Shown here: piece by piece, positions 3,270-17,691 of the stretch
Layout: every line of letters starts with the position of its first letter
Numbering within the stretch: position 1 is the first letter of the stretch
From: Escherichia phage vB_EcoM_VR25
Sequence record: NC_028925.1
Direction: 5' to 3' (one strand)
DNA length: 64,000 nt
Made by a program: the position numbers and the translations under genes
Notes under the pieces: model-generated
Told to the model about the DNA's origin: nothing
The model's input: the letters and a program-made list of their open reading frames with translations, nothing else
Database searches by the model: none

Positions 3270-4844
3270 ATGGCAGGTTTTAATACAATACTAAATTTTC
3301 TTAAGCCTTGGGCTAAAGAAGATGAACAAGAATATAAGCAACAAGAAAAAAATAATTTAGAGTCAATGACCGGGCCGAAGTTTGATGATGGGGCTCGCGA
3401 AATTGAGTCACAAGAACAAAACGTCCCGTATAATGCATTGATGCAACAGATGTTCGGGAGCAACGAACCGGAAGTAAAAAACACCAGGGAATTAATTGAC
3501 ACATACCGCAACCTACTAAATAATTATGAAGTTGATAACGCGGTGCAAGAAATTGTGTCTGATGCTATCGTTTTTGAAGATGGTAAAGATGTCGTAGCTC
3601 TTAACCTTGATGCTACTGAATTTAGTCAGAAAATTAAAGACCGAATTCTCGAAGAATTCTCGGAAGTTAATAACCTCCTTAATTTCGAGCGTAAAGGTTC
3701 TGACCACTTTAAACGTTGGTATGTGGATTCTCGAATTTTCTTCCACAAAATTATCAACCCTTCAAAACTTAAAGAAGGCGTTCAAGAACTTCGTCGCCTT
3801 GACCCAAGACAAATCCAGTTCATCCGTGAAATCGTTACACGCATGGAAAATGGTACGAAAATTGTTGACGGTTACAGAGAATATTTTGTATACGATACTG
3901 GACATGAAAGCTATTGTGCCGATGGTCGTATATATGAAGCGGGTACTAAAATAAAAATTCCTCGTGCGGCAATTGTATATGCACATTCCGGATTACTTGA
4001 TTGTTGCGGTAAGAATATCATCGGATACCTGCAACGAGCAATCAAACCTGCAAACCAATTAAAACTATTAGAAGATGCTTTAGTCATTTATCGTATAACT
4101 CGTGCGCCAGACCGCCGAGTCTTTTATATCGATACTGGGAATATGCCGTCTCGTAAAGCAGCAGCACATATGCAACATATTATGAACACGATGAAAAACC
4201 GTGTCGTATATGATGCAACTACGGGTAAAATCAAAAATCAACAGCATAATATGTCAATGACAGAAGACTATTGGTTGCAACGTCGTGACGGTAAAGCAGT
4301 CACTGAAGTTGATACTCTCCCAGGTGCACAAGGCATGTCGGATATGGACGATGTTCGCTGGTTTAAGAACAACCTATATCAGGCTCTCAGAATTCCATTA
4401 TCTCGTATCCCTAATGACCAGAACAGTGGCGTTATGTTTGATGCGGGGGCGACAATTACTCGCGATGAATTGAATTTCTCTAAATGGATTAGACAACTAC
4501 AGAATAAATTTGAAGAAGTTTTCCTCGACCCGCTTAAAACCAACCTTATCCTGAAAAAAGTTATTTCAGAAGAGGAATGGGACAAGGAACTAAATAATAT
4601 TAAAGTTACGTTCAACCGTGATAGCTATTTCACCGAAATGAAAGATGCAGAAATCATGGAACGCAGAATCAATATGCTAACGATGGCTGAACCGTTTATC
4701 GGTAAATATATTTCGCATCAAACTGCAATGAAGGATTTCCTCCAGATGTCTGATGAAGAAATTAATCAAGAAGCTAAGCAAATTGAATTGGAGTCCAAAG
4801 AGGCTCGTTTCCAAAACCCTGAAGAAGAAGAAGAGGATTTCTAA
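3270..4844 (+). CDS. 20: Portal vertex protein
   Basis: 524-aa ORF, same length class and position as T4 gp20. Confidence 0.93.
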
Positions 4845-5098
4845 TGGATGATTTATTTGAAGCCATTAAATCAAACGACCTCGTAGCCGTTCGCAAATAT
4901 TTTGCTGAAAACATTGGCCCAGTATGCGGTAGTTTGATTGAAGAACGTAAGATTGAAATTGCACGTTCCATCATGATTGAAGGTGAAGAGCCTAAAGAAG
5001 ATGATGAAAACAAGGACGACAAAGCAGAAAAGAAAGACAAAAAAGAATCTGACGACGCTGACGAAGGCGACGACGATGAAGATGAGGACGATGAATAA
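4844..5098 (+). CDS. 67: Prohead core protein (acidic C-terminus)
   Basis: Small ORF with poly-D/E tail in the gene 67 slot; start overlaps gene 20 stop. Confidence 0.8.
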
Positions 5099-5526
5099 TG
5101 TTTATTATCCCTGACGATTACGAATTAACTCTTGAAAACATCGAAAGTGTTTCCGAAGAAGCTCAGGGACAATTTGATTCATTATCTGAAGCCTTAGAAA
5201 AAGACGATATAAATATTATTGTAGAAAACATGTTTGCAGCCGGTGAATATGAAAAAGCAACGGTTATCGGCGCACTGAATGAAGGTGTTCAGCTTAACGA
5301 ATTTATCGTTAAACATGTATCGTCTCGCGGTGAGTTAACCCGCACAAAAGACCGAGCTACTCGTAAGCGTAATGCTTTCCAAACAACTGGTCTTTCTAAA
5401 GCTAAACGTCGTCAAATTGCCCGACTGGCTACTAAAACGAAAAGAGCAAACCCATCTACGCAAATCAGAGCAGAGCGCAAGCGTAAAAAAGCTCGAGCTA
5501 AGCGTAAAGCATTCGGACTTGATTAA
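5098..5526 (+). CDS. 68: Prohead core protein
   Basis: 142-aa ORF in the gene 68 slot, translationally coupled (TAATG) to neighbours. Confidence 0.8.
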
Positions 5527-7036: not shown

Positions 7037-8596
7037 ATGAAAAAGAATGCATTAGTTCAAAAATGGTCCGCTCTGCTGGAAAACGAAGCTCTTCCTGAAA
7101 TCGTTGGTGCTTCTAAACAAGCTATCATCGCTAAAATCTTTGAAAACCAGGAACAAGATATCCTGACCGCTCCTGAATACCGTGACGAAAAAATCTCCGA
7201 AGCATTTGGTTCTTTCCTGACTGAAGCTGAAATCGGTGGTGACCATGGTTATGATGCTACCAATATCGCGGCTGGCCAGACCTCTGGTGCAGTAACTCAG
7301 ATTGGGCCGGCAGTTATGGGTATGGTTCGTCGTGCTATCCCGCATCTGATTGCGTTTGATATTTGTGGCGTGCAGCCTCTGAACAACCCGACTGGCCAGG
7401 TATTTGCCCTGCGTGCAGTTTACGGTAAAGACCCTGTAGCTGCTGGTGCTAAAGAAGCTTTCCACCCGATGTATGCTCCGAACGCTATGTTCTCTGGTCA
7501 GGGCGCTGCTGAAGCTTTCGAAGCTCTGGCTGCAAGCAAAGTTCTTACCGTTGGTAAAATTTATTCTCACTTCTTCGAAGCAACCGGTTCCGCACACTAC
7601 CAGGCTGTTGAAGCTGTAACCGTTGATGCTGGCGCTACTGATGCTGCTAAACTTGACGCTGAAGTTACCAAACTGCTCGAAGCTGGTAAACTGGCAGAAA
7701 TTGCTGAAGGTATGGCTACCTCTATCGCCGAACTGCAGGAAGGTTTCAACGGTTCTCAGGATAACCCGTGGAACGAAATGGGCTTCCGCATCGATAAACA
7801 AGTTATCGAAGCTAAATCCCGTCAGCTGAAAGCAAGCTACTCTATCGAACTGGCACAGGACCTGCGCGCTGTTCACGGTATGGACGCTGATGCTGAATTG
7901 AGTGGTATTCTGGCTACTGAAATTATGCTGGAAATCAACCGCGAAGTTATCGATTGGATTAACTACTCCGCACAGGTTGGTAAATCTGGTATGACCAACA
8001 CCGTTGGCGCTAAAGCTGGTGTGTTTGACTTCCAGGACCCAATTGATATCCGTGGCGCTCGTTGGGCTGGTGAAAGCTTCAAAGCTTTACTGTTCCAGAT
8101 TGATAAAGAAGCCGCTGAAATCGCTCGTCAGACCGGTCGTGGTGCAGGTAACTTCATCATCGCTTCCCGTAACGTAGTTAACGTACTGGCTGCAGTTGAT
8201 ACCTCCGTATCTTATGCTGCTCAGGGTCTGGGTAAAGGTTTCAACGTTGACACCACTAAAGCTGTGTTCGCTGGTGTTCTGGGTGGCAAATACCGTGTCT
8301 ATATCGACCAGTATGCTCGCGCAGATTACTTCACCATCGGTTACAAAGGCGCTAACGAAATGGATGCTGGTATCTACTACGCACCATATGTTGCACTGAC
8401 CCCGCTGCGTGGCTCTGACCCGAAAAACTTCCAGCCGGTTATGGGCTTCAAAACCCGTTACGGTATCGGTATTAACCCGTTCGCTGACCCGGCAGCTCAG
8501 GCTCCGACCAAGCGTATTCAAAACGGCATGCCGGACATTGTTAACAGCCTCGGCTTGAACGGTTACTTTAGACGTGTATATGTAAAAGGTATCTAA
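7037..8596 (+). CDS. 23: Major capsid protein
   Basis: 519-aa ORF; paralogous to the downstream gp24 ORFs (shared SRKLK..S..ELAQDL and YYAPY motifs); T4 order. Confidence 0.95.
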   Translation: MKKNALVQKWSALLENEALPEIVGASKQAIIAKIFENQEQDILTAPEYRDEKISEAFGSFLTEAEIGGDHGYDATNIAAGQTSGAVTQIGPAVMGMVRRAIPHLIAFDICGVQPLNNPTGQVFALRAVYGKDPVAAGAKEAFHPMYAPNAMFSGQGAAEAFEALAASKVLTVGKIYSHFFEATGSAHYQAVEAVTVDAGATDAAKLDAEVTKLLEAGKLAEIAEGMATSIAELQEGFNGSQDNPWNEMGFRIDKQVIEAKSRQLKASYSIELAQDLRAVHGMDADAELSGILATEIMLEINREVIDWINYSAQVGKSGMTNTVGAKAGVFDFQDPIDIRGARWAGESFKALLFQIDKEAAEIARQTGRGAGNFIIASRNVVNVLAAVDTSVSYAAQGLGKGFNVDTTKAVFAGVLGGKYRVYIDQYARADYFTIGYKGANEMDAGIYYAPYVALTPLRGSDPKNFQPVMGFKTRYGIGINPFADPAAQAPTKRIQNGMPDIVNSLGLNGYFRRVYVKGI

Positions 8597-9027: not shown

Positions 9028-10308
9028 ATGGCAAAGATTAACGAACTGCTGCGCGAGTCAACTACCACTACCAGCAACTCCTTGGGCCGCCCGAATCTTG
9101 TTGCTTTGACCCGTGCTACAACCAAATTGATTTACCGCGATATTATCGCTGAACAACGTACTAACCAGCCAGTTGCGGCTCTGTACGGTGTTAAATATCT
9201 TACTCCTGATAATGAATTCAGTTTCCAGACTGGTGCTACTTATGGTGGTGAAGTCGGTTCTAAAGACCGTACAACTATTCCAGAATTAGCTACAGCTACT
9301 CAGCCTGTTGCTAAAGGCGAATATGTAAAATATCAAAATATCGTTTACAAAGCTCTGGTGGATAATCCATTTGCAACAACCACAGAAACAGTATTATCTG
9401 ATGTTCTACAGGAAGGTCTTATTGCATCGACTATTCGTTTAGTTCCTGATGCAGCGCATACCGAGAAATTTGAAGCCGGTGATGTTGAAATTAGTAACGC
9501 CGTGTTCCAGGTTAATAAATGGAATGCTCCTGTTAAATCCCGTAAATTGAAAACTGCACTGACTGTTGAACTTGCTCAGGATATGGAAGCAAACGGTTTT
9601 AATGCTCCTGCTTTCCTGGAAGACCTGCTTGCAACTACCATGGCAGACGAAATTAACAAAGATGTTCTGCAGTCTCTGATTACCGTTTCCAAGCGTTATA
9701 AAGTCACTGGCGTTTCTGATAAAGGTTTCATCGATTTGACATATGATTCAGCTCCAGAAGGCGCACGTAAACTATACGAACTGGTTTGCGAAATGAACTC
9801 TGAAATTCAGAAAACTACATCTTACTCTGGTACATTCGTTGTTGCCTCAAGTCGTGTGGCCGCGATGCTCGCCGGTTCCGGTTGGTTGAAACATAAACCT
9901 GAAGATGAACAATGGCTCCCGGAAACCGCGTACGGCTATTTGATTAATGGTCTTCCTGTATTCTGTGATGTTAACAGTCCATTGGATTATGTAACCGTTG
10001 GCGTTAAAGAAAATTACGGTGGAAACGAAGTCGTAGGCTCAATCTTCTATGCTCCTTATACCGAAGGCCTGGACTTAGATGATGAAGAACATGTAGGTGC
10101 GTTTAAGGTCATTGTGGACCCAGACAGCTTGCAGCCATCTATCTCCTTGATGGTTCGATATGCACTTTCAGCTAACCCTTACACCGTTGCTAAAGACGAC
10201 AAAGAAGCTCGTATTATCGATGCAACTAATATGGATTTAATGGCCGGCCAGAGCAACATGTCTTATCTGCTCGGTGTTAAACTTCCACCAATCATTTATG
10301 AGGCGTAA
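9028..10308 (+). CDS. 24: Head vertex protein gp24
   Basis: 426-aa ORF; N-terminus MAKINELLRESTTT..SLGRPNLVALTRATTKLIY matches remembered T4 gp24. Confidence 0.93.
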   Translation: MAKINELLRESTTTTSNSLGRPNLVALTRATTKLIYRDIIAEQRTNQPVAALYGVKYLTPDNEFSFQTGATYGGEVGSKDRTTIPELATATQPVAKGEYVKYQNIVYKALVDNPFATTTETVLSDVLQEGLIASTIRLVPDAAHTEKFEAGDVEISNAVFQVNKWNAPVKSRKLKTALTVELAQDMEANGFNAPAFLEDLLATTMADEINKDVLQSLITVSKRYKVTGVSDKGFIDLTYDSAPEGARKLYELVCEMNSEIQKTTSYSGTFVVASSRVAAMLAGSGWLKHKPEDEQWLPETAYGYLINGLPVFCDVNSPLDYVTVGVKENYGGNEVVGSIFYAPYTEGLDLDDEEHVGAFKVIVDPDSLQPSISLMVRYALSANPYTVAKDDKEARIIDATNMDLMAGQSNMSYLLGVKLPPIIYEA

Positions 10309-11592
10309 ATGCAAAAGATTAACGCACTAATTCACGAATCAACATTAACGGCGGCCAACCAGGTCGCCCGTCCTAATTTGCTTTCTTATACTCGGGCTAC
10401 GAATAAACGAATTTTTAAAGCTCTTGTGGCCGAACAGAAAACTACTCAGCCAGTCGCAGCGCTGTATGGCGTTCGTGTTCTGAACCCAGATGATAAAATG
10501 ACTTATCTTGGTGGAGCAACATTTGCAGGCCAGATTGGTATGTTCGAGCGTAAGAATATTCCAGAATTTACGAACAAAGACGAAGCTTATGCAGTCGGCA
10601 ACATGTTCCAGTTTGAAAGCATTGTATTCAAAGCTTTGGAAGCTTCTCCTTTTGCCGGGACCCTCGAAACTGATTTGGGTGAAGTTATTTCTGAAGCCAT
10701 TGCGGCTGGCCATATAAGAATGATGTCAGATGCGGCTTTCACTGATAAATTTGAACAAGGACATCCTGAAATTGCTGAAGCCGGTTTCCGTATTGATAAA
10801 TGGCAGACTGAAGTTAAATCCAGAAAACTGAAAACCTCTTTAACCGTTGAGCTTGCGCAAGACCTGGAAGCAAATGGTTTCGACGCAACAGATTTTATTG
10901 ATAATATCCTTGGTATTCAAATGGCAGAGGAAATTAATAAGGACGTACTGCAATCTTTAATTACCGTGAGTTCGCGTTTTAAAGTCCAGGGTGTTTCCGA
11001 AAAAGGTGTACTTAATCTTACTGATGCCGCTTATGATAATGCTCAGGACCGTGCTCGAACTCTGTATTATTATATGTGCGAAATGAATTCCGCAGTTCAA
11101 CGTCAGACTTCGTTCGCTGGTACATATGCAGTCGCTTCTTCCCGTTGTGCAGCTATTTTAGCAGCTTCTGGCTGGGTTGAGAAAAAGGAAGACCAAGATG
11201 AATTGGCCTATGGTGTTCTGAAGAACGGTTTGCCACTTTATGCAGATATGAATAGCCCGTGCGATTATGTTATTGTTGGTGTAAATGCTGATATGGGTGA
11301 AGGTCAGACAGTCGCATCTTTGTATTATGCGCCTTATACGGAAGGTCTTAGTGAAGTTGATGATGAGGGTGACACCTCGGTTGGGGAATTCAAGGTTATC
11401 GTTGACCCCGAAAGTTTACAGCCTACAGTTGCACTGTTAGCTCGTTATGCACTGACTGCAAACCCTTACACCGTTGCTAAAGACGATAAAGAAGCTCGCA
11501 TTATTGATGGAGCTGATATGGATAAGATGGCTAACCAAAGCCAATTGAGTTCTTATCTTGGTGTTAAACTTCCACCACTGGAAAAAGAATAA
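10309..11592 (+). CDS. Second, diverged gp24-like head vertex protein (tandem paralog)
   Basis: 427-aa ORF starting on the TAAATG junction; clearly homologous along full length to upstream gp24 (MQKINALIHESTLT..., shared C-terminal ANPYTVAKDDKEARIID). Confidence 0.88.
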   Translation: MQKINALIHESTLTAANQVARPNLLSYTRATNKRIFKALVAEQKTTQPVAALYGVRVLNPDDKMTYLGGATFAGQIGMFERKNIPEFTNKDEAYAVGNMFQFESIVFKALEASPFAGTLETDLGEVISEAIAAGHIRMMSDAAFTDKFEQGHPEIAEAGFRIDKWQTEVKSRKLKTSLTVELAQDLEANGFDATDFIDNILGIQMAEEINKDVLQSLITVSSRFKVQGVSEKGVLNLTDAAYDNAQDRARTLYYYMCEMNSAVQRQTSFAGTYAVASSRCAAILAASGWVEKKEDQDELAYGVLKNGLPLYADMNSPCDYVIVGVNADMGEGQTVASLYYAPYTEGLSEVDDEGDTSVGEFKVIVDPESLQPTVALLARYALTANPYTVAKDDKEARIIDGADMDKMANQSQLSSYLGVKLPPLEKE

Positions 11593-13210: not shown

Positions 13211-13347
13211 GTTGAGTTAGTGAAGCTATCTTAACATGGAATTTTTAACTTGTAAACAGGAGTTTTATGCCAGATATTCTTGAACGTAAAGATTTACTTT
13301 ACAACCGCCACTACTTTAATAAATATTAAATTAATAACGGAGGATTT

Positions 13348-14928
13348 ATGACACAAACTACAGGTGAAAAAGAAGGCGTATTTTACGGTTATTCTCTTTA
13401 TGATTTGAATAAAGAAAAACTAATAACTTTTGATGAATTACTTACAGGTGTTCAAGGAGAGCCCGGAGAAAATGGCGATATTGGACCAAAAGGCCCTATT
13501 GGTTTAACAGGTCCTCAAGGACCGAAAGGTGATACCGGGTCAAAAGGTATTAAAGGTGATACCGGCCCTCAAGGTATTCAAGGGCCCGCTGGCCCACAAG
13601 GTCCTCAGGGAGAAAAGGGAGTCCAAGGTTTAGCTGGAGTCCAAGGCATTCAAGGACCAGTCGGCCACCAAGGAGTGAAAGGTGATACCGGCCCTCAAGG
13701 TATTCAAGGACCGAAAGGTGATACAGGTCCTCAAGGCCCACAAGGTGACAAAGGCGAAATGGGTCCGGTGGGTCCGGCTGGTCTAACATGGAAAGGAACA
13801 TGGGACGCTGATGTAGAGTATTCTATAAATGAGGCTGTCGGATATGGTGGTTCTTTATATTTCGCCAAAACAAAAGTTCCTAATGGCGAAATACCAACAC
13901 CGACTTCTAACTATTGGGGTGTTTTGGCTACCGAGGGTCCACAAGGTCCACAAGGTCAACAAGGTCTTAAAGGTGATACCGGTCCTCAAGGTATTCAAGG
14001 ACCTGTAGGGCCTGTAGGGCAGCAGGGTATTCAGGGACCAAGAGGACTTCAAGGGTCAGAAGGTGAAATAGGACCGCGGGGTATTCAAGGGCTAAAAGGC
14101 GAAACTGGGCCCGCTGGTCCACAGGGTATTCAAGGGCTAAAAGGCGAGGTGGGTGCTCAGGGTCCTTCTGGTTCTCCTGGACTTACAGGACCAGAAGGAC
14201 CTCGTGGGTTAACAGGCGAAGCTGGAGCTCAAGGACCTCGTGGTGCTATAGGTCCTATCGGTTTAACAGGTCCTATCGGTTTAACGGGTCCTCAAGGTAT
14301 TCAAGGTCCTAAAGGTGATACAGGTCCTCAAGGCTTACAAGGTCCTCAAGGCTTACGAGGTATTCAAGGAGCTCCTGGAGTAAAAGGAGAAGCGGGTGCA
14401 CAAGGTCCTATCGGTTTAACAGGTCCGAAAGGTGATACCGGTCCTCAAGGTATTCAAGGACCGAAAGGTGATACAGGAGCACAAGGTCCTATTGGTTTAA
14501 CTGGACCTAAAGGTGATACAGGCCCGAGCCCTTATACTGTTTATAATTATTCTAATGTTGCAACTGGTTATGCTGAAATGGTTATGCCTGGTGTGTCATC
14601 AAACACAGTATTTAGACTTCGTTCAGTTGGAACTAATATAGAATATAGTGTTCTAAGTAAAGGCGGAGCTAATAGATATGTAGATTGGCACTTTTCAATT
14701 CCAAGTGTTTCCGGCAATACAGTAAGTACTAATAGCGGAACTAATACATTAACTCCTACAGGTAATTTTACTATTGTGGCGACCGCTTATAATGGACTAA
14801 GGGGATTTACAATAACATTATGCGAGTGGGGTTCAAGAGCTATTGTTGATATCACTGTTTATCATCATGGGCGTTCGGGAGACACAACCAAAGCTGTGGC
14901 TATTCGTATGACTACTACAAAATACTAA
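13348..14928 (+). CDS. Collagen-like (Gly-X-Y repeat) protein with aromatic globular insert and C-terminal globular domain
   Basis: 526-aa ORF, GGAGGA RBS; two long uninterrupted G-X-Y blocks (about 13450-13790 and 13930-14525) separated by a W/Y-rich segment; about 135 aa non-collagen C-terminus. Confidence 0.85.
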   Translation: MTQTTGEKEGVFYGYSLYDLNKEKLITFDELLTGVQGEPGENGDIGPKGPIGLTGPQGPKGDTGSKGIKGDTGPQGIQGPAGPQGPQGEKGVQGLAGVQGIQGPVGHQGVKGDTGPQGIQGPKGDTGPQGPQGDKGEMGPVGPAGLTWKGTWDADVEYSINEAVGYGGSLYFAKTKVPNGEIPTPTSNYWGVLATEGPQGPQGQQGLKGDTGPQGIQGPVGPVGQQGIQGPRGLQGSEGEIGPRGIQGLKGETGPAGPQGIQGLKGEVGAQGPSGSPGLTGPEGPRGLTGEAGAQGPRGAIGPIGLTGPIGLTGPQGIQGPKGDTGPQGLQGPQGLRGIQGAPGVKGEAGAQGPIGLTGPKGDTGPQGIQGPKGDTGAQGPIGLTGPKGDTGPSPYTVYNYSNVATGYAEMVMPGVSSNTVFRLRSVGTNIEYSVLSKGGANRYVDWHFSIPSVSGNTVSTNSGTNTLTPTGNFTIVATAYNGLRGFTITLCEWGSRAIVDITVYHHGRSGDTTKAVAIRMTTTKY

Positions 14929-14937
14929 GGAGCTTTA

Positions 14938-15801
14938 ATGGAACCGGTTAAAGCTGTGTTAGAGCCTGATGTAATAGATGTGGAATATGGTAATACATAC
15001 TCGGCTACTGTAACTCTGTCTCCTATAGAAAATATTCCAGATGGTTCCGTGATAAGATATGATTGGGTTGTTAATAACAAGTTCGTTGGTACGGGTGAAG
15101 CTACTCGTACCACCCAACCATCTCAGACCGGAAATTATGTATTATCATGTAGAGTATTCATTACTCCGCCTAATGAAAATACTGTAATGATAACAACTAA
15201 TAAATCATATGGGTATGTATATAAAAATTCCGATACAAGTCCAGTAGATGCAGAAATATTATATGATAACAAGATATACCAAATAGGAAGCAAAGTTAGA
15301 TTATTAGCCGTTGCCAATAACCCAGATACCAACTTTGTTAAAGGTATTATATGGAAGGATGCTGATGGTAAGATAATAGGTATAGGTCGGGAATATATCC
15401 ATACAATGCAATCAGAGTATGATATAGTTCGAGCTAAAGTTACAATGGATTCGCCTATAAGAGATGAATTTAGTAAGAACTTTACTATACATTTGTACGC
15501 TATAAATGTTCAAGAAGGAACATGTATAAGATATATTCATCCTTTAGACCACAGGGATGCAGGATTTATCTGGTGTGGTTGGTGGGTTATGGATGAAATC
15601 CAACGAGCGATAAAACTTGGGCTGGATTGGAAAAATCCAAAAGAGCTAGATTTAAATTACAAGTGTGATTTAGAGACATTAGCGTTATTGCTCAAGACAT
15701 ATCCTGAAGCCGAAGTTCAAGAATCAAGACACGGATATATAATAACCAGACTACAAATTGAGACTGGCGAAATATATAAAAAACCATATGAAGTAAAATA
15801 A
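14938..15801 (+). CDS. Hoc-like capsid decoration protein (second hoc paralog)
   Basis: 287-aa ORF, AAGGAG RBS; C-terminal region (HPLDHR..IWCGWWVMDEIQ..YPEAEVQESRHGYII) shares the capsid-binding domain with the canonical Hoc downstream. Confidence 0.85.
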   Translation: MEPVKAVLEPDVIDVEYGNTYSATVTLSPIENIPDGSVIRYDWVVNNKFVGTGEATRTTQPSQTGNYVLSCRVFITPPNENTVMITTNKSYGYVYKNSDTSPVDAEILYDNKIYQIGSKVRLLAVANNPDTNFVKGIIWKDADGKIIGIGREYIHTMQSEYDIVRAKVTMDSPIRDEFSKNFTIHLYAINVQEGTCIRYIHPLDHRDAGFIWCGWWVMDEIQRAIKLGLDWKNPKELDLNYKCDLETLALLLKTYPEAEVQESRHGYIITRLQIETGEIYKKPYEVK

Positions 15802-15803
15802 AA

Positions 15804-15817
15804 GGGCCTTGCGGCCC
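15804..15817. terminator. Bidirectional terminator between convergent hoc-like and hoc genes
   Basis: GGGCC-TTGC-GGCCC stem with flanking A/T tracts. Confidence 0.65.
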
Positions 15818-15824
15818 TTTATCA

Positions 15825-16928
15825 TTAATAGACGTAATCGTATATAATACCAGCTTCCAATGCCGAACGGTGGACGATACGACCGTTACGAGATTCCTGT
15901 ACATCAACTTCCGGGTAATCACTAAGCATTTTGGCTAATACCGCCAGATGACAATAATATGGTGTATCCTCTTTAGTGGCTTTTTTCCAATCTGTACTTT
16001 CAGATGTTAATTTCTGAATAGCGTCCATAACCCACCAGCCACACCAAATATACGCAGTATTACGGACAGGAAGTGGATGTACATAAATTAAAGGGCATTC
16101 TTCTGGAATAACAGGCTCTGCTTCTTCCACAGTAACGGACTTAGTACCTGATTTAACTGAATTTGTAAAGCCTGTTTGTGATGCGGTAACTTCACAAGTA
16201 TATGTCTTCAAGCCTTCAGTGGATTCCGTTATTGCTCTTGTTGCTTCTGTTGAGTTGTCGTCCCATTTATATGCAAGAGTCGCACCAGGGATAGCAGGGG
16301 ACACAGAAGCTGTCAAATTGAATGGAACATCAACCGTTGCAGTAGACGGGCCTGAAATCTCAACAGTGAACTCAGGAAATGTATTGTTTTCGACCGTAAC
16401 AACTACTGCCTCAGGATTAATAACTTGATTGTCATAATCTGCCGCAGAAACGGTAATTTGGCAAGTTAAAGAAACTGGTCCTGCGTCAGTAGCAGCACGA
16501 GTAATATCTTTAGTAATTTCACCAGTAGACCACAAATATGCTATTGTAGCTCCACCGGGTTCACCTGTTACATTAGCCGAAGCGTTATATTCCTGACCAA
16601 CTTTAACAGTAGGAGTGGAAGTTGTTAATGTTGCTGTTGCAGCCATAGTCTTATTATTAACCGTAATGGTTGTTTGAGCCTCTGCCGTTTCAGGCTCTCC
16701 TTCTTCCGGCGTTGTGGTGGCAACAACTTTAATTACTTTTGAACCTGCTGGGCCAGCTGCAATATAATCCATAGTAGCAATAACAGAATCTTGTGGAACA
16801 TCATCAACGGTCCATACAAAAGATTCGGTACCAGCGACAGCGGCTCCAGCCCCAGTAGCAGTAAAATTAGTTGTTGCACCTATAACCGCTGTAGGTGTTA
16901 AAGGGGCAATTGATACAGTATAAGCCAT
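15825..16928 (-). CDS. hoc: Highly immunogenic outer capsid protein Hoc
   Basis: 367-aa ORF, Ser/Thr/Ala-rich Ig-like repeats plus C-terminal YVHPLP..YIWCGWWVMD..YPEVDVQESRNG motif as in T4 Hoc. Confidence 0.92.
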   Translation of the reverse strand: MAYTVSIAPLTPTAVIGATTNFTATGAGAAVAGTESFVWTVDDVPQDSVIATMDYIAAGPAGSKVIKVVATTTPEEGEPETAEAQTTITVNNKTMAATATLTTSTPTVKVGQEYNASANVTGEPGGATIAYLWSTGEITKDITRAATDAGPVSLTCQITVSAADYDNQVINPEAVVVTVENNTFPEFTVEISGPSTATVDVPFNLTASVSPAIPGATLAYKWDDNSTEATRAITESTEGLKTYTCEVTASQTGFTNSVKSGTKSVTVEEAEPVIPEECPLIYVHPLPVRNTAYIWCGWWVMDAIQKLTSESTDWKKATKEDTPYYCHLAVLAKMLSDYPEVDVQESRNGRIVHRSALEAGIIYDYVY

Positions 16929-16956: not shown

Positions 16957-17637
16957 TTAATTTAAACGAATAAAAGATGAGTTACGTGTTTCACGAATAA
17001 GAATGGAACCGTCACGATTGATATAGTAAATCAAACTAAACAATGTTTGGTGTGCGCTTGCATGAGTAAAAGAAGTAGGGCGTTCTTTCCAGTCCGGGGT
17101 CTCTTTAATCCACTGGTAAATCCACCAAGGGAGAGTACAATATCCAGGAGCTTTGCCCAGCATAAGCAGATTGGGGCTAAAATTTTTAGGCAGTGTAAAT
17201 TTAGGAGTTTCAGCTTCGATGATTTGAGCGACAGCTTCTTCAAAGTCTTCGGAAACAAACGGCACTTCAATTTCAACGAGTTTAACTTCTGATTCAGGAA
17301 CAACTTCCTGGGTAACTTCGACTACTTCAACGGGTGCTTCTGGAGCATCAAACAAAAGAACAGCTTCAGGTTTAGCTGATTCTTCACCTTCAAACTTACC
17401 ACCTGATAATTCATCATCGGCATTAATAAGGTCGGTGATGCTTAAGCCTTCGTTATCGTCCGGCATAGGCATGTCAGCAAATGCTTGCAGCCCGGCTTCC
17501 AGGTCAATCAACATATTATCGAAAGTTTTTGTTTTCTTAACATCAACACCAAGCGATGATGCATATTCAGCTAATTTTTCTTTGGCTTCTTTTTTCTCGA
17601 GGACACGAATTTCCTCAATATAGTTCTTATCAATCAT
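16957..17637 (-). CDS. inh: Probable Inh (inhibitor of prohead protease)
   Basis: 226-aa ORF in the T4 inh slot between hoc and uvsW; assignment by position and size. Confidence 0.65.
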   Translation of the reverse strand: MIDKNYIEEIRVLEKKEAKEKLAEYASSLGVDVKKTKTFDNMLIDLEAGLQAFADMPMPDDNEGLSITDLINADDELSGGKFEGEESAKPEAVLLFDAPEAPVEVVEVTQEVVPESEVKLVEIEVPFVSEDFEEAVAQIIEAETPKFTLPKNFSPNLLMLGKAPGYCTLPWWIYQWIKETPDWKERPTSFTHASAHQTLFSLIYYINRDGSILIRETRNSSFIRLN

Positions 17638-17655: not shown

Positions 17656-17663
17656 TATAAATA
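17656..17663 (+). promoter_or_regulatory. Late promoter box TATAAATA upstream of uvsW
   Basis: Exact TATAAATA about 28 nt upstream of the uvsW ATG. Confidence 0.55.
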
Positions 17664-17691
17664 TAGATATATTTATTACCTTGGAATCATC

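Follow-up and report, generated by a model that had tools for sequence, protein, structure and literature searches.

The ATG open reading frame at positions 14938-15801 encodes a second protein of the Hoc family, referred to here as Hoc2, in a phage that also carries a canonical hoc gene. Hoc2 probably serves as a functional decoration protein, using a Hoc-type C-terminal domain to dock at the centre of the gp23 hexamers, so that heads would carry a mixture of Hoc2 and Hoc. The window, by which we mean the whole stretch of 64,000 nt from Escherichia phage vB_EcoM_VR25 (NC_028925.1) that was analysed, comes from a VR26-like Gaprivervirus, and the region of interest is 97 % identical to VR26. 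Hoc fibres mediate the adhesion of phages to mucus and to the surfaces of bacteria, and for antigen display they are a major platform.

A second Hoc is a known and recurrent feature, and annotations of this particular gene already exist in near-identical genomes. With the two-Hoc idea published and the gene annotated in close relatives, the finding is in itself a fairly ordinary one, and what is added here is mainly evolutionary, namely that hoc2 belongs to a horizontally exchanged cassette and is not a local duplicate, that it is under strong purifying selection and that it is consistently linked to a fibre gene. The linkage of the fibre gene with hoc2 and the exchange of the cassette are the only parts that may be new.

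The hoc2 gene and its product

The following features were assigned in and around the gene.

13348..14928 (+), collagen-like fibre gene, 526 aa, directly upstream of hoc2
14927..14932 (+), Shine-Dalgarno sequence AAGGAG of hoc2, 5 nt before the ATG, read from the sequence
14938..15801 (+), hoc2, second Hoc-family head-decoration gene, ATG open reading frame of 287 aa
Hoc2 residues ~1-97, Ig-like domain 1 (AF2 model)
Hoc2 residues ~98-192, Ig-like domain 2 (AF2 model)
Hoc2 residues ~193-287, nt 15514-15798 (+), capsid-binding C-terminal domain
15801..15820, GC-rich hairpin AAAGGGCC-TTGC-GGCCCTTT between the convergent hoc2 and hoc stops (terminator scan)
15825..16928 (-), canonical hoc, 367 aa, three Ig-like domains and the C-terminal domain
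16957..17637 (-), inh, prohead protease inhibitor

As originally predicted, hoc2 and canonical hoc are convergent, on the plus and the minus strand, respectively, with 23 nt between their stop codons. Canonical hoc is in the T4 position downstream of inh, matches PHROG 1149 with E=3e-116 and is named hoc in VR26 and VR7, and inh (PHROG 1051, E=1e-88; also annotated in VR26 and VR7) lies upstream of it on the same strand and is followed by uvsW. The start codon of hoc2 is 9 nt past the stop codon of the fibre gene, and the hoc2 Shine-Dalgarno sequence overlaps that stop (TAA, 14926-14928). The same tight arrangement of stop, Shine-Dalgarno sequence and start is found in VR26, KIT01, JS10, CGG4-1 and the phage of locus L006. 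At the other end of the gene, the hairpin at 15801-15820 has a folding energy of -13.5 kcal/mol when transcribed from the plus strand and -13.9 from the minus strand (z about -3). A hairpin occurs at the equivalent spot in eight phages, with stems that differ in sequence and show compensating changes, and it is likely to be a bidirectional intrinsic terminator common to hoc2 and hoc.

When hoc2 was compared to its KIT01 ortholog, 64 synonymous and 22 non-synonymous differences were found, corresponding to a dN/dS of 0.07, and the ratio was similar in the Ig part and in the C-terminal domain. At least six phages have an uninterrupted hoc2 frame. Judged from its sequence, and because of this low dN/dS, hoc2 is a functional gene under strong purifying selection and not a pseudogene.

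The original prediction held that the last ~85 residues of the product match the C-terminus of the canonical Hoc and that the N-terminal part differs. The strings quoted in support align as given, and BLASTP of the whole proteins yielded an alignment of 268 aa at 28 % identity (E=6e-28). Identity is 47 % without a gap over the last ~92 residues and only ~16 % over the N-terminal ~190 residues. The similarity is far beyond chance and the pairwise alignment of the C-terminal domains is not spurious. Residues 5-280 of Hoc2 match PHROG 1149 ('Hoc-like head decoration') with E=1e-57, Hoc2 also matches PHROG 21694 with E=6e-18, a phmmer search of the sequences in the PDB returned T4 Hoc chains only (E=3e-26), and the C-terminal domain is 52 % identical to residues 281-376 of T4 Hoc.

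Single-sequence AlphaFold was unusable (pLDDT 36), and a model of Hoc2 was built with AF2 from an alignment of 47 sequences. This model (pLDDT 88.7) consists of two beta-sandwich domains followed by an alpha/beta C-terminal domain. The C-terminal region, with a pLDDT of about 90, has T4 Hoc (8t1x_X) as its top PDB match (TM 0.81, target-normalised; rmsd 1.7 A over 87 columns), and the next Foldseek matches of the model were to domains of RB49 Hoc (3shs) and to many Ig-superfamily ectodomains, with E about 1e-6. No Pfam domain passed the threshold in either Hoc2 or the canonical Hoc, Ig and PKD models included, and the Ig-like character of the N-terminal domains, which had been put forward for checking, was borne out by the AF2 beta-sandwiches and the Foldseek matches to 3shs.

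The Ig string of Hoc2 comprises two domains, compared with three in Hoc, and aligns to Hoc domains 2-3. The two proteins also differ in mass and charge, Hoc2 (32.8 kDa) having a pI of 5.3 and a net charge of -8 and the resident Hoc (38.9 kDa) a pI of 4.3 and -24. Hence, the 'different display domain' of the original prediction is different in sequence but not in kind, as the two Ig-like domains are homologous to domains 2-3 of the three in Hoc. On the sequence and fold of its C-terminal domain, its gp23-contact residues (see below) and its N-terminal Ig-like string, Hoc2 is a Hoc.

A separate observation concerns Inh. Its C-terminal ~65 residues (~161-223) align with the capsid-binding motifs of Hoc (PWWIYQWI..DWK...IRETRNSSF vs GWWVMDEI..DWK...VQESRNGYI), hhalign of Inh against the Hoc domain gave a probability of 60 % and E=9e-5 over 61 columns, and an HMM for Hoc's C-terminal domain matches the Inh open reading frames at about 1e-4 in 50 loci. 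As inh and hoc are adjacent and on one strand, the pair could be an old tandem duplication. No mention of the likeness between Inh and Hoc was found in the Hoc structure paper.

Capsid site, transcription and proposed role

The site to which Hoc2 would bind is provided by the product of gene 23.

7037..8596 (+), gene 23, major capsid protein, 85 % identical to T4 gp23

Fokine et al. 2023 (PMC10385173) defined the Hoc-binding site on T4 gp23 and 16 positions at which T4 Hoc contacts gp23 or stabilises the binding loop. Hoc2 retains 14 of them (Y199, H201, H205, R206, W212, W215, W216, D219, Q261, E262, S263, R264, G266 and Y267) and is changed at the remaining two, Y304F (F210) and N358H (H265). 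The resident Hoc also retains 14 of the 16, with the changes H299V and Y360R. Asn358 of T4 Hoc hydrogen-bonds to Arg344 of gp23, and its replacement in Hoc2 weighs against docking, although a His at this position is also seen in the sole Hocs of Kosakonia phage 305 (K305) and of the phage of locus L008. The Hoc-binding stretch of gp23 in the window (T4 residues 326-344) differs from that of T4 at one residue, with Asp336 and Arg344 retained, and the phage has one gp23 gene and one binding-loop sequence.

The centre of the gp23 hexamer is the presumed docking site of both Hoc2 and Hoc. That two capsid-binding proteins could compete for one capsid site or generate mixed decoration, as the original prediction proposed, would follow soundly from the contact residues together with the single conserved gp23 site, and is the best-supported mechanism.

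A scan for late-promoter motifs identified one candidate upstream of the fibre gene.

13318..13325 (+), AATAAATA, candidate late promoter of the fibre-hoc2 unit (motif scan)

This motif has one mismatch to the T4 late-promoter consensus TATAAATA and lies 22 nt upstream of the ATG of the fibre gene. It is retained in VR26 and VR7 and not in KIT01, JS10 or CGG4-1, and K305 and the phage of locus L006 have CATAAATA instead. An exact TATAAATA is absent upstream of the fibre-hoc2 unit, where only variants with one mismatch were seen, and the scan detected no late-promoter motif within 340 nt upstream of hoc2 itself. The fibre gene is probably co-transcribed with hoc2. We infer that this co-transcription is late, and put it no more strongly because the sole motif, AATAAATA, is limited to Gapriverviruses.

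Two further features of the flanking sequence are recorded here. In Gapriverviruses, a 20-codon open reading frame, MPDILERKDLLYNRHYFNKY (13267-13329 in the window, plus strand), with its own GGAG ribosome-binding site, separates gene 24.3 from the fibre gene. The late-promoter-like AATAAATA falls inside this frame, which has the look of a short insertion, because the sequence just upstream of it corresponds to what JS10 and KIT01 have immediately before their fibre genes. On the far side of inh, an exact TATAAATA is found at 17656-17663 on the plus strand, just upstream of uvsW, and the one-mismatch AATAAATA at 17677 on the minus strand, upstream of inh, suggesting that the inh-uvsW intergenic region may direct divergent late transcription.

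The most likely course of events is that hoc2 would be expressed late in infection, on a transcript shared with the collagen-like fibre gene upstream, and that, after expansion of the capsid, Hoc2 would dock by its C-terminal domain at the centres of the gp23 hexamers, as the resident Hoc does. As each hexamer offers one site and both ligands are competent, a mixture would result, in a ratio set by expression and affinity, and virions would carry short, weakly acidic Hoc2 fibres alongside long, strongly acidic Hoc fibres. With the Hoc2 fibre shorter, less acidic and unrelated in its Ig surfaces, such a mixture would broaden or change surface adhesion and charge. Hoc2 itself belongs to a distinct branch of the Hocs, one that is passed between T4-like phages within an accessory cassette of two genes, situated in this phage between gene 24.3 and hoc. 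A phage with two Hocs and conserved anchors offers a ready system for measuring how two decoration proteins share a single site, and mixing the two Hocs would show the effects on surface charge and adhesion.

Cassette exchange and the linked fibre gene

The C-terminal domain of the resident Hoc groups with that of T4 Hoc (66-70 % identity). The C-terminal domain of Hoc2 shares 60-64 % identity with those of other Hoc2s and of the sole, two-Ig Hocs found in the canonical position in Serratia-type phages, and only 47 % with that of the resident Hoc. A recent duplication of hoc within this genome was rejected on the basis of this identity matrix. The term 'paralog' used in the original prediction is therefore apt in that hoc2 is a second gene of the Hoc family, but not in the sense of a local duplication, as the C-terminal domain is nearer to foreign Hocs and the gene has been exchanged as part of a cassette.

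The exchange is seen in two comparisons. Between the window and VR7 the flanks are 93-100 % identical, but positions 13500-15900, which include most of the fibre gene and all of hoc2, are only 30-70 % identical. Between the window and the Dhakavirus KIT01 the reverse is the case, with a backbone that is 50-70 % identical and hoc2 at 89-96 %. Hence, hoc2 is mobile as a cassette, both among members of one genus and across genera. Its distribution is patchy in each of three genera: it is present in VR26, VR7 and VR5 and absent from VR20 (Gaprivervirus), present in JS10, IME08 and KIT01 and absent from JS98 (Dhakavirus), and present in CGG4-1 and absent from S16 (Gelderlandvirus).

The window also contains tandem paralogs of gp24, the capsid vertex protein, at 9028-10308 and 10309-11592 (plus strand; 426 and 427 aa), and a gp24 duplication is likewise annotated in VR7, VR20, JS98, JS10, S16 and CGG4-1. 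A link between Hoc2 and the duplicated gp24 was considered and rejected, as VR20, S16 and JS98 have two gp24 genes and no Hoc2.

In K305 (locus L005) the fibre-Hoc2 pair is present and the canonical hoc is gone. The gap of 360 nt between the Hoc2-type gene and inh (4841-5205) holds an 11-codon relic of the 3'-end of hoc (LEAGTIYSYVY, then the stop codon), which indicates that the arrival of the cassette preceded the deletion of canonical hoc, and the K305 genome has nothing else that resembles Hoc. A phage can therefore have Hoc2 as its single Hoc. As Hoc is dispensable in T4, the loss of hoc from K305 is no proof that Hoc2 has replaced it.

The protein encoded upstream of hoc2 matches the Pfam Collagen family (E=2e-50) and PHROG 5073 'tail fiber' (E=4e-154). 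It is made up of a conserved N-terminus of ~35 aa, two variable long runs of G-X-Y triplets, a conserved middle part of ~60 aa and a variable C-terminal globular domain, and the two runs, with 312 residues in all, make it capable of forming a collagen-type trimer. Compared with that of VR26, the gene in the window has 18 additional codons, or six G-X-Y triplets (526 vs 508 aa), and the genes are otherwise 99 % identical; the difference, at ~14400-14460, fits slippage among the collagen repeats.

In each of the 13 T4-like loci examined (the window, L002, L004, L005, L006, L009, L010, L015, L016, L017, L020, L021 and L022), a short Hoc gene is immediately preceded by a gene of this fibre family, which abuts or overlaps it. 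The loci belong to two subfamilies, Tevenvirinae and Emmerichvirinae, and to three insertion sites, between gene 24.3 and hoc, after gene 24 (Erwinia FBB1) and beside tk (Aeromonas phage 65). Among 50 Hoc loci from IMG/VR the fibre gene was found four times, always directly upstream of an open reading frame with the Hoc C-terminal domain. The conserved order of fibre gene and short Hoc gene suggests that the two are linked in function, perhaps through a collagen-like fibre anchored on the head, and the constant pairing hints at a role for Hoc2 beyond simple decoration.

It is conceivable, though rather unlikely, that Hoc2 is an adaptor, serving as the gp23 anchor or assembly partner for the trimeric collagen-like fibre on the head, which its Ig domains would hold or help to assemble, and not mainly as an adhesin. 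The conserved gene order, seen in both subfamilies and at all three insertion sites and again in the four IMG/VR loci, is what would be expected of such a pair, and distances between Hoc2s are tracked better by the N-terminus of the fibre protein (Mantel r=0.68, formally significant) than by its C-terminus (r=0.28), though this signal may reflect one deep split. There is also a precedent in gp12 of SPP1, a collagen-like trimer that binds to the centres of capsid hexamers (cited in PMC7602432), and Rogue1-like siphoviruses have a related fibre gene just before the major head gene. However, the N-termini of the fibre proteins of the window and VR7 are 98 % identical and their Hoc2s only 41 %, and there is therefore no tight co-adaptation. 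Moreover, rV5-like phages include the fibre N-terminus but no adjacent Hoc-like gene, the neighbours in PBES02 having no similarity to Hoc, both Muldoon and the main locus of Cronus have two Hocs without a fibre gene, and the stoichiometry of a monomeric Hoc does not match that of a trimeric fibre. An equally tentative extension is that fibre and short Hoc together make up a two-component 'hairy head' appendage with a swappable tip, a form of modular adhesion that is exchanged between genera. The tip, i.e. the C-terminal domain of the fibre protein, is shuffled independently, that of the window being 57 % identical to the tip in JS10, where Hoc2 is of a different subtype. We found no publication describing a two-component appendage of fibre and Hoc2 on the head of T4-like phages.

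Two other readings concern Hoc2 without the fibre. There is a small chance that Hoc2 and Hoc partition on the capsid without competing, with Hoc2 preferring a subset of capsomers such as the vertex-proximal hexamers or those influenced by the second gp24. The contact residues are changed at different positions in the two proteins (Hoc has H299V and Y360R, Hoc2 has Y304F and N358H), the phage has two gp24 genes, and the vertex-proximal hexamers of T4 are known to bind Hoc differently. Against this, the contact set is otherwise alike in both proteins, a single gp23 gene supplies a single binding-loop sequence, the gp24 duplication is found without Hoc2 in VR20, S16 and JS98, so that the traits are unlinked, and K305 has Hoc2 as its sole Hoc. 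Least probable by far is that the resident hoc was duplicated and that hoc2 is the decaying or silent copy, either a pseudogene or an unexpressed remnant. Though the gene is shorter, lacks one Ig domain and has no exact TATAAATA upstream, this is hard to reconcile with a frame that is intact in at least six phages, a dN/dS of 0.07 for both the Ig part and the C-terminal domain, a strong Shine-Dalgarno sequence, a conserved terminator-like hairpin, a confident AF2 fold and a C-terminal domain with greater similarity to foreign Hocs than to that of this phage. A truncated pseudogene, which the original prediction had named as an outcome that would count against it, conflicts with the same observations. 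A functional decoration protein that would share the gp23 hexamer centres with Hoc is, hence, the reading that we prefer.

Relatives and comparison with known systems

Hoc2 has orthologs in VR26 (YP_009214031, 98.6 % identical) and in KIT01 (KIT01_185, 93 %, both at the protein level), with locus and orientation unchanged. In VR7 the gene is ORF197w (ADR32572), for which the GenBank record of 2010 notes 'similar to bacteriophage T4 Hoc', and the name given to these genes in RefSeq is 'Hoc-like head decoration'. The alleles of VR7, VR5 and ESCO10 are only 41 % identical to that of the window, though the flanks are 93-100 % identical. The equivalent gene is recorded as 'hoc-2: second copy of the hoc gene' in Aeromonas phage 65 and as 'outer capsid protein Hoc I' in Salmonella phage CGG4-1. 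These two proteins and JS10 gp177 are, like Hoc2, second proteins with the Hoc C-terminal domain that are shorter than the Hoc encoded beside them. They constitute a second subtype, sharing only 21-24 % identity overall with Hoc2 of the window and having the YxHPL motif replaced.

We found neither virion proteomics nor any discussion of hoc2 in the literature on VR7 (whose genome paper was outside the coverage), VR26, Gaprivervirus, JS10, CGG4-1 or Kosakonia phage 305, and the gene is unmentioned in the VR26 and Gaprivervirus papers. Beyond these phages, 11 of the 50 IMG/VR Hoc loci scanned contain two or more strong open reading frames with the Hoc C-terminal domain, and Fokine et al. 2023 (PMC10385173) reported two Hoc-like proteins in Serratia phage Muldoon and in Enterobacter phage PG7 and suggested that the capsid-binding domain is reused to functionalise the head or to display other modules. 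The second Hocs of both are short, but that of Muldoon is encoded in the same orientation as the first and without a fibre gene, and that of PG7 includes a lipase domain, neither of which applies in the window.

The fibre protein of the window can be set beside gp12 of SPP1, which is also a collagen G-X-Y protein encoded among the head genes and binds the site that Hoc uses in T4. However, gp12 is much smaller, and in the non-collagen parts the two are, as far as tested, unrelated; the fibre protein carries the PHROG label 'tail fiber'. For Hoc2, one of the closest known systems is T4 Hoc itself (PDB 8t1x and 5vf3; RB49 Hoc, 3shs), with which it shares an acidic character, a location in the neighbourhood of head genes and most of the QESRxG loop. 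It differs from T4 Hoc in having two Ig-like domains and not three, in the N358H and Y304F changes and in being less acidic, and the gene differs from T4 hoc in that it lies outside the inh-hoc unit, on the other strand and downstream of a collagen-like fibre gene, and is present in addition to a canonical Hoc.
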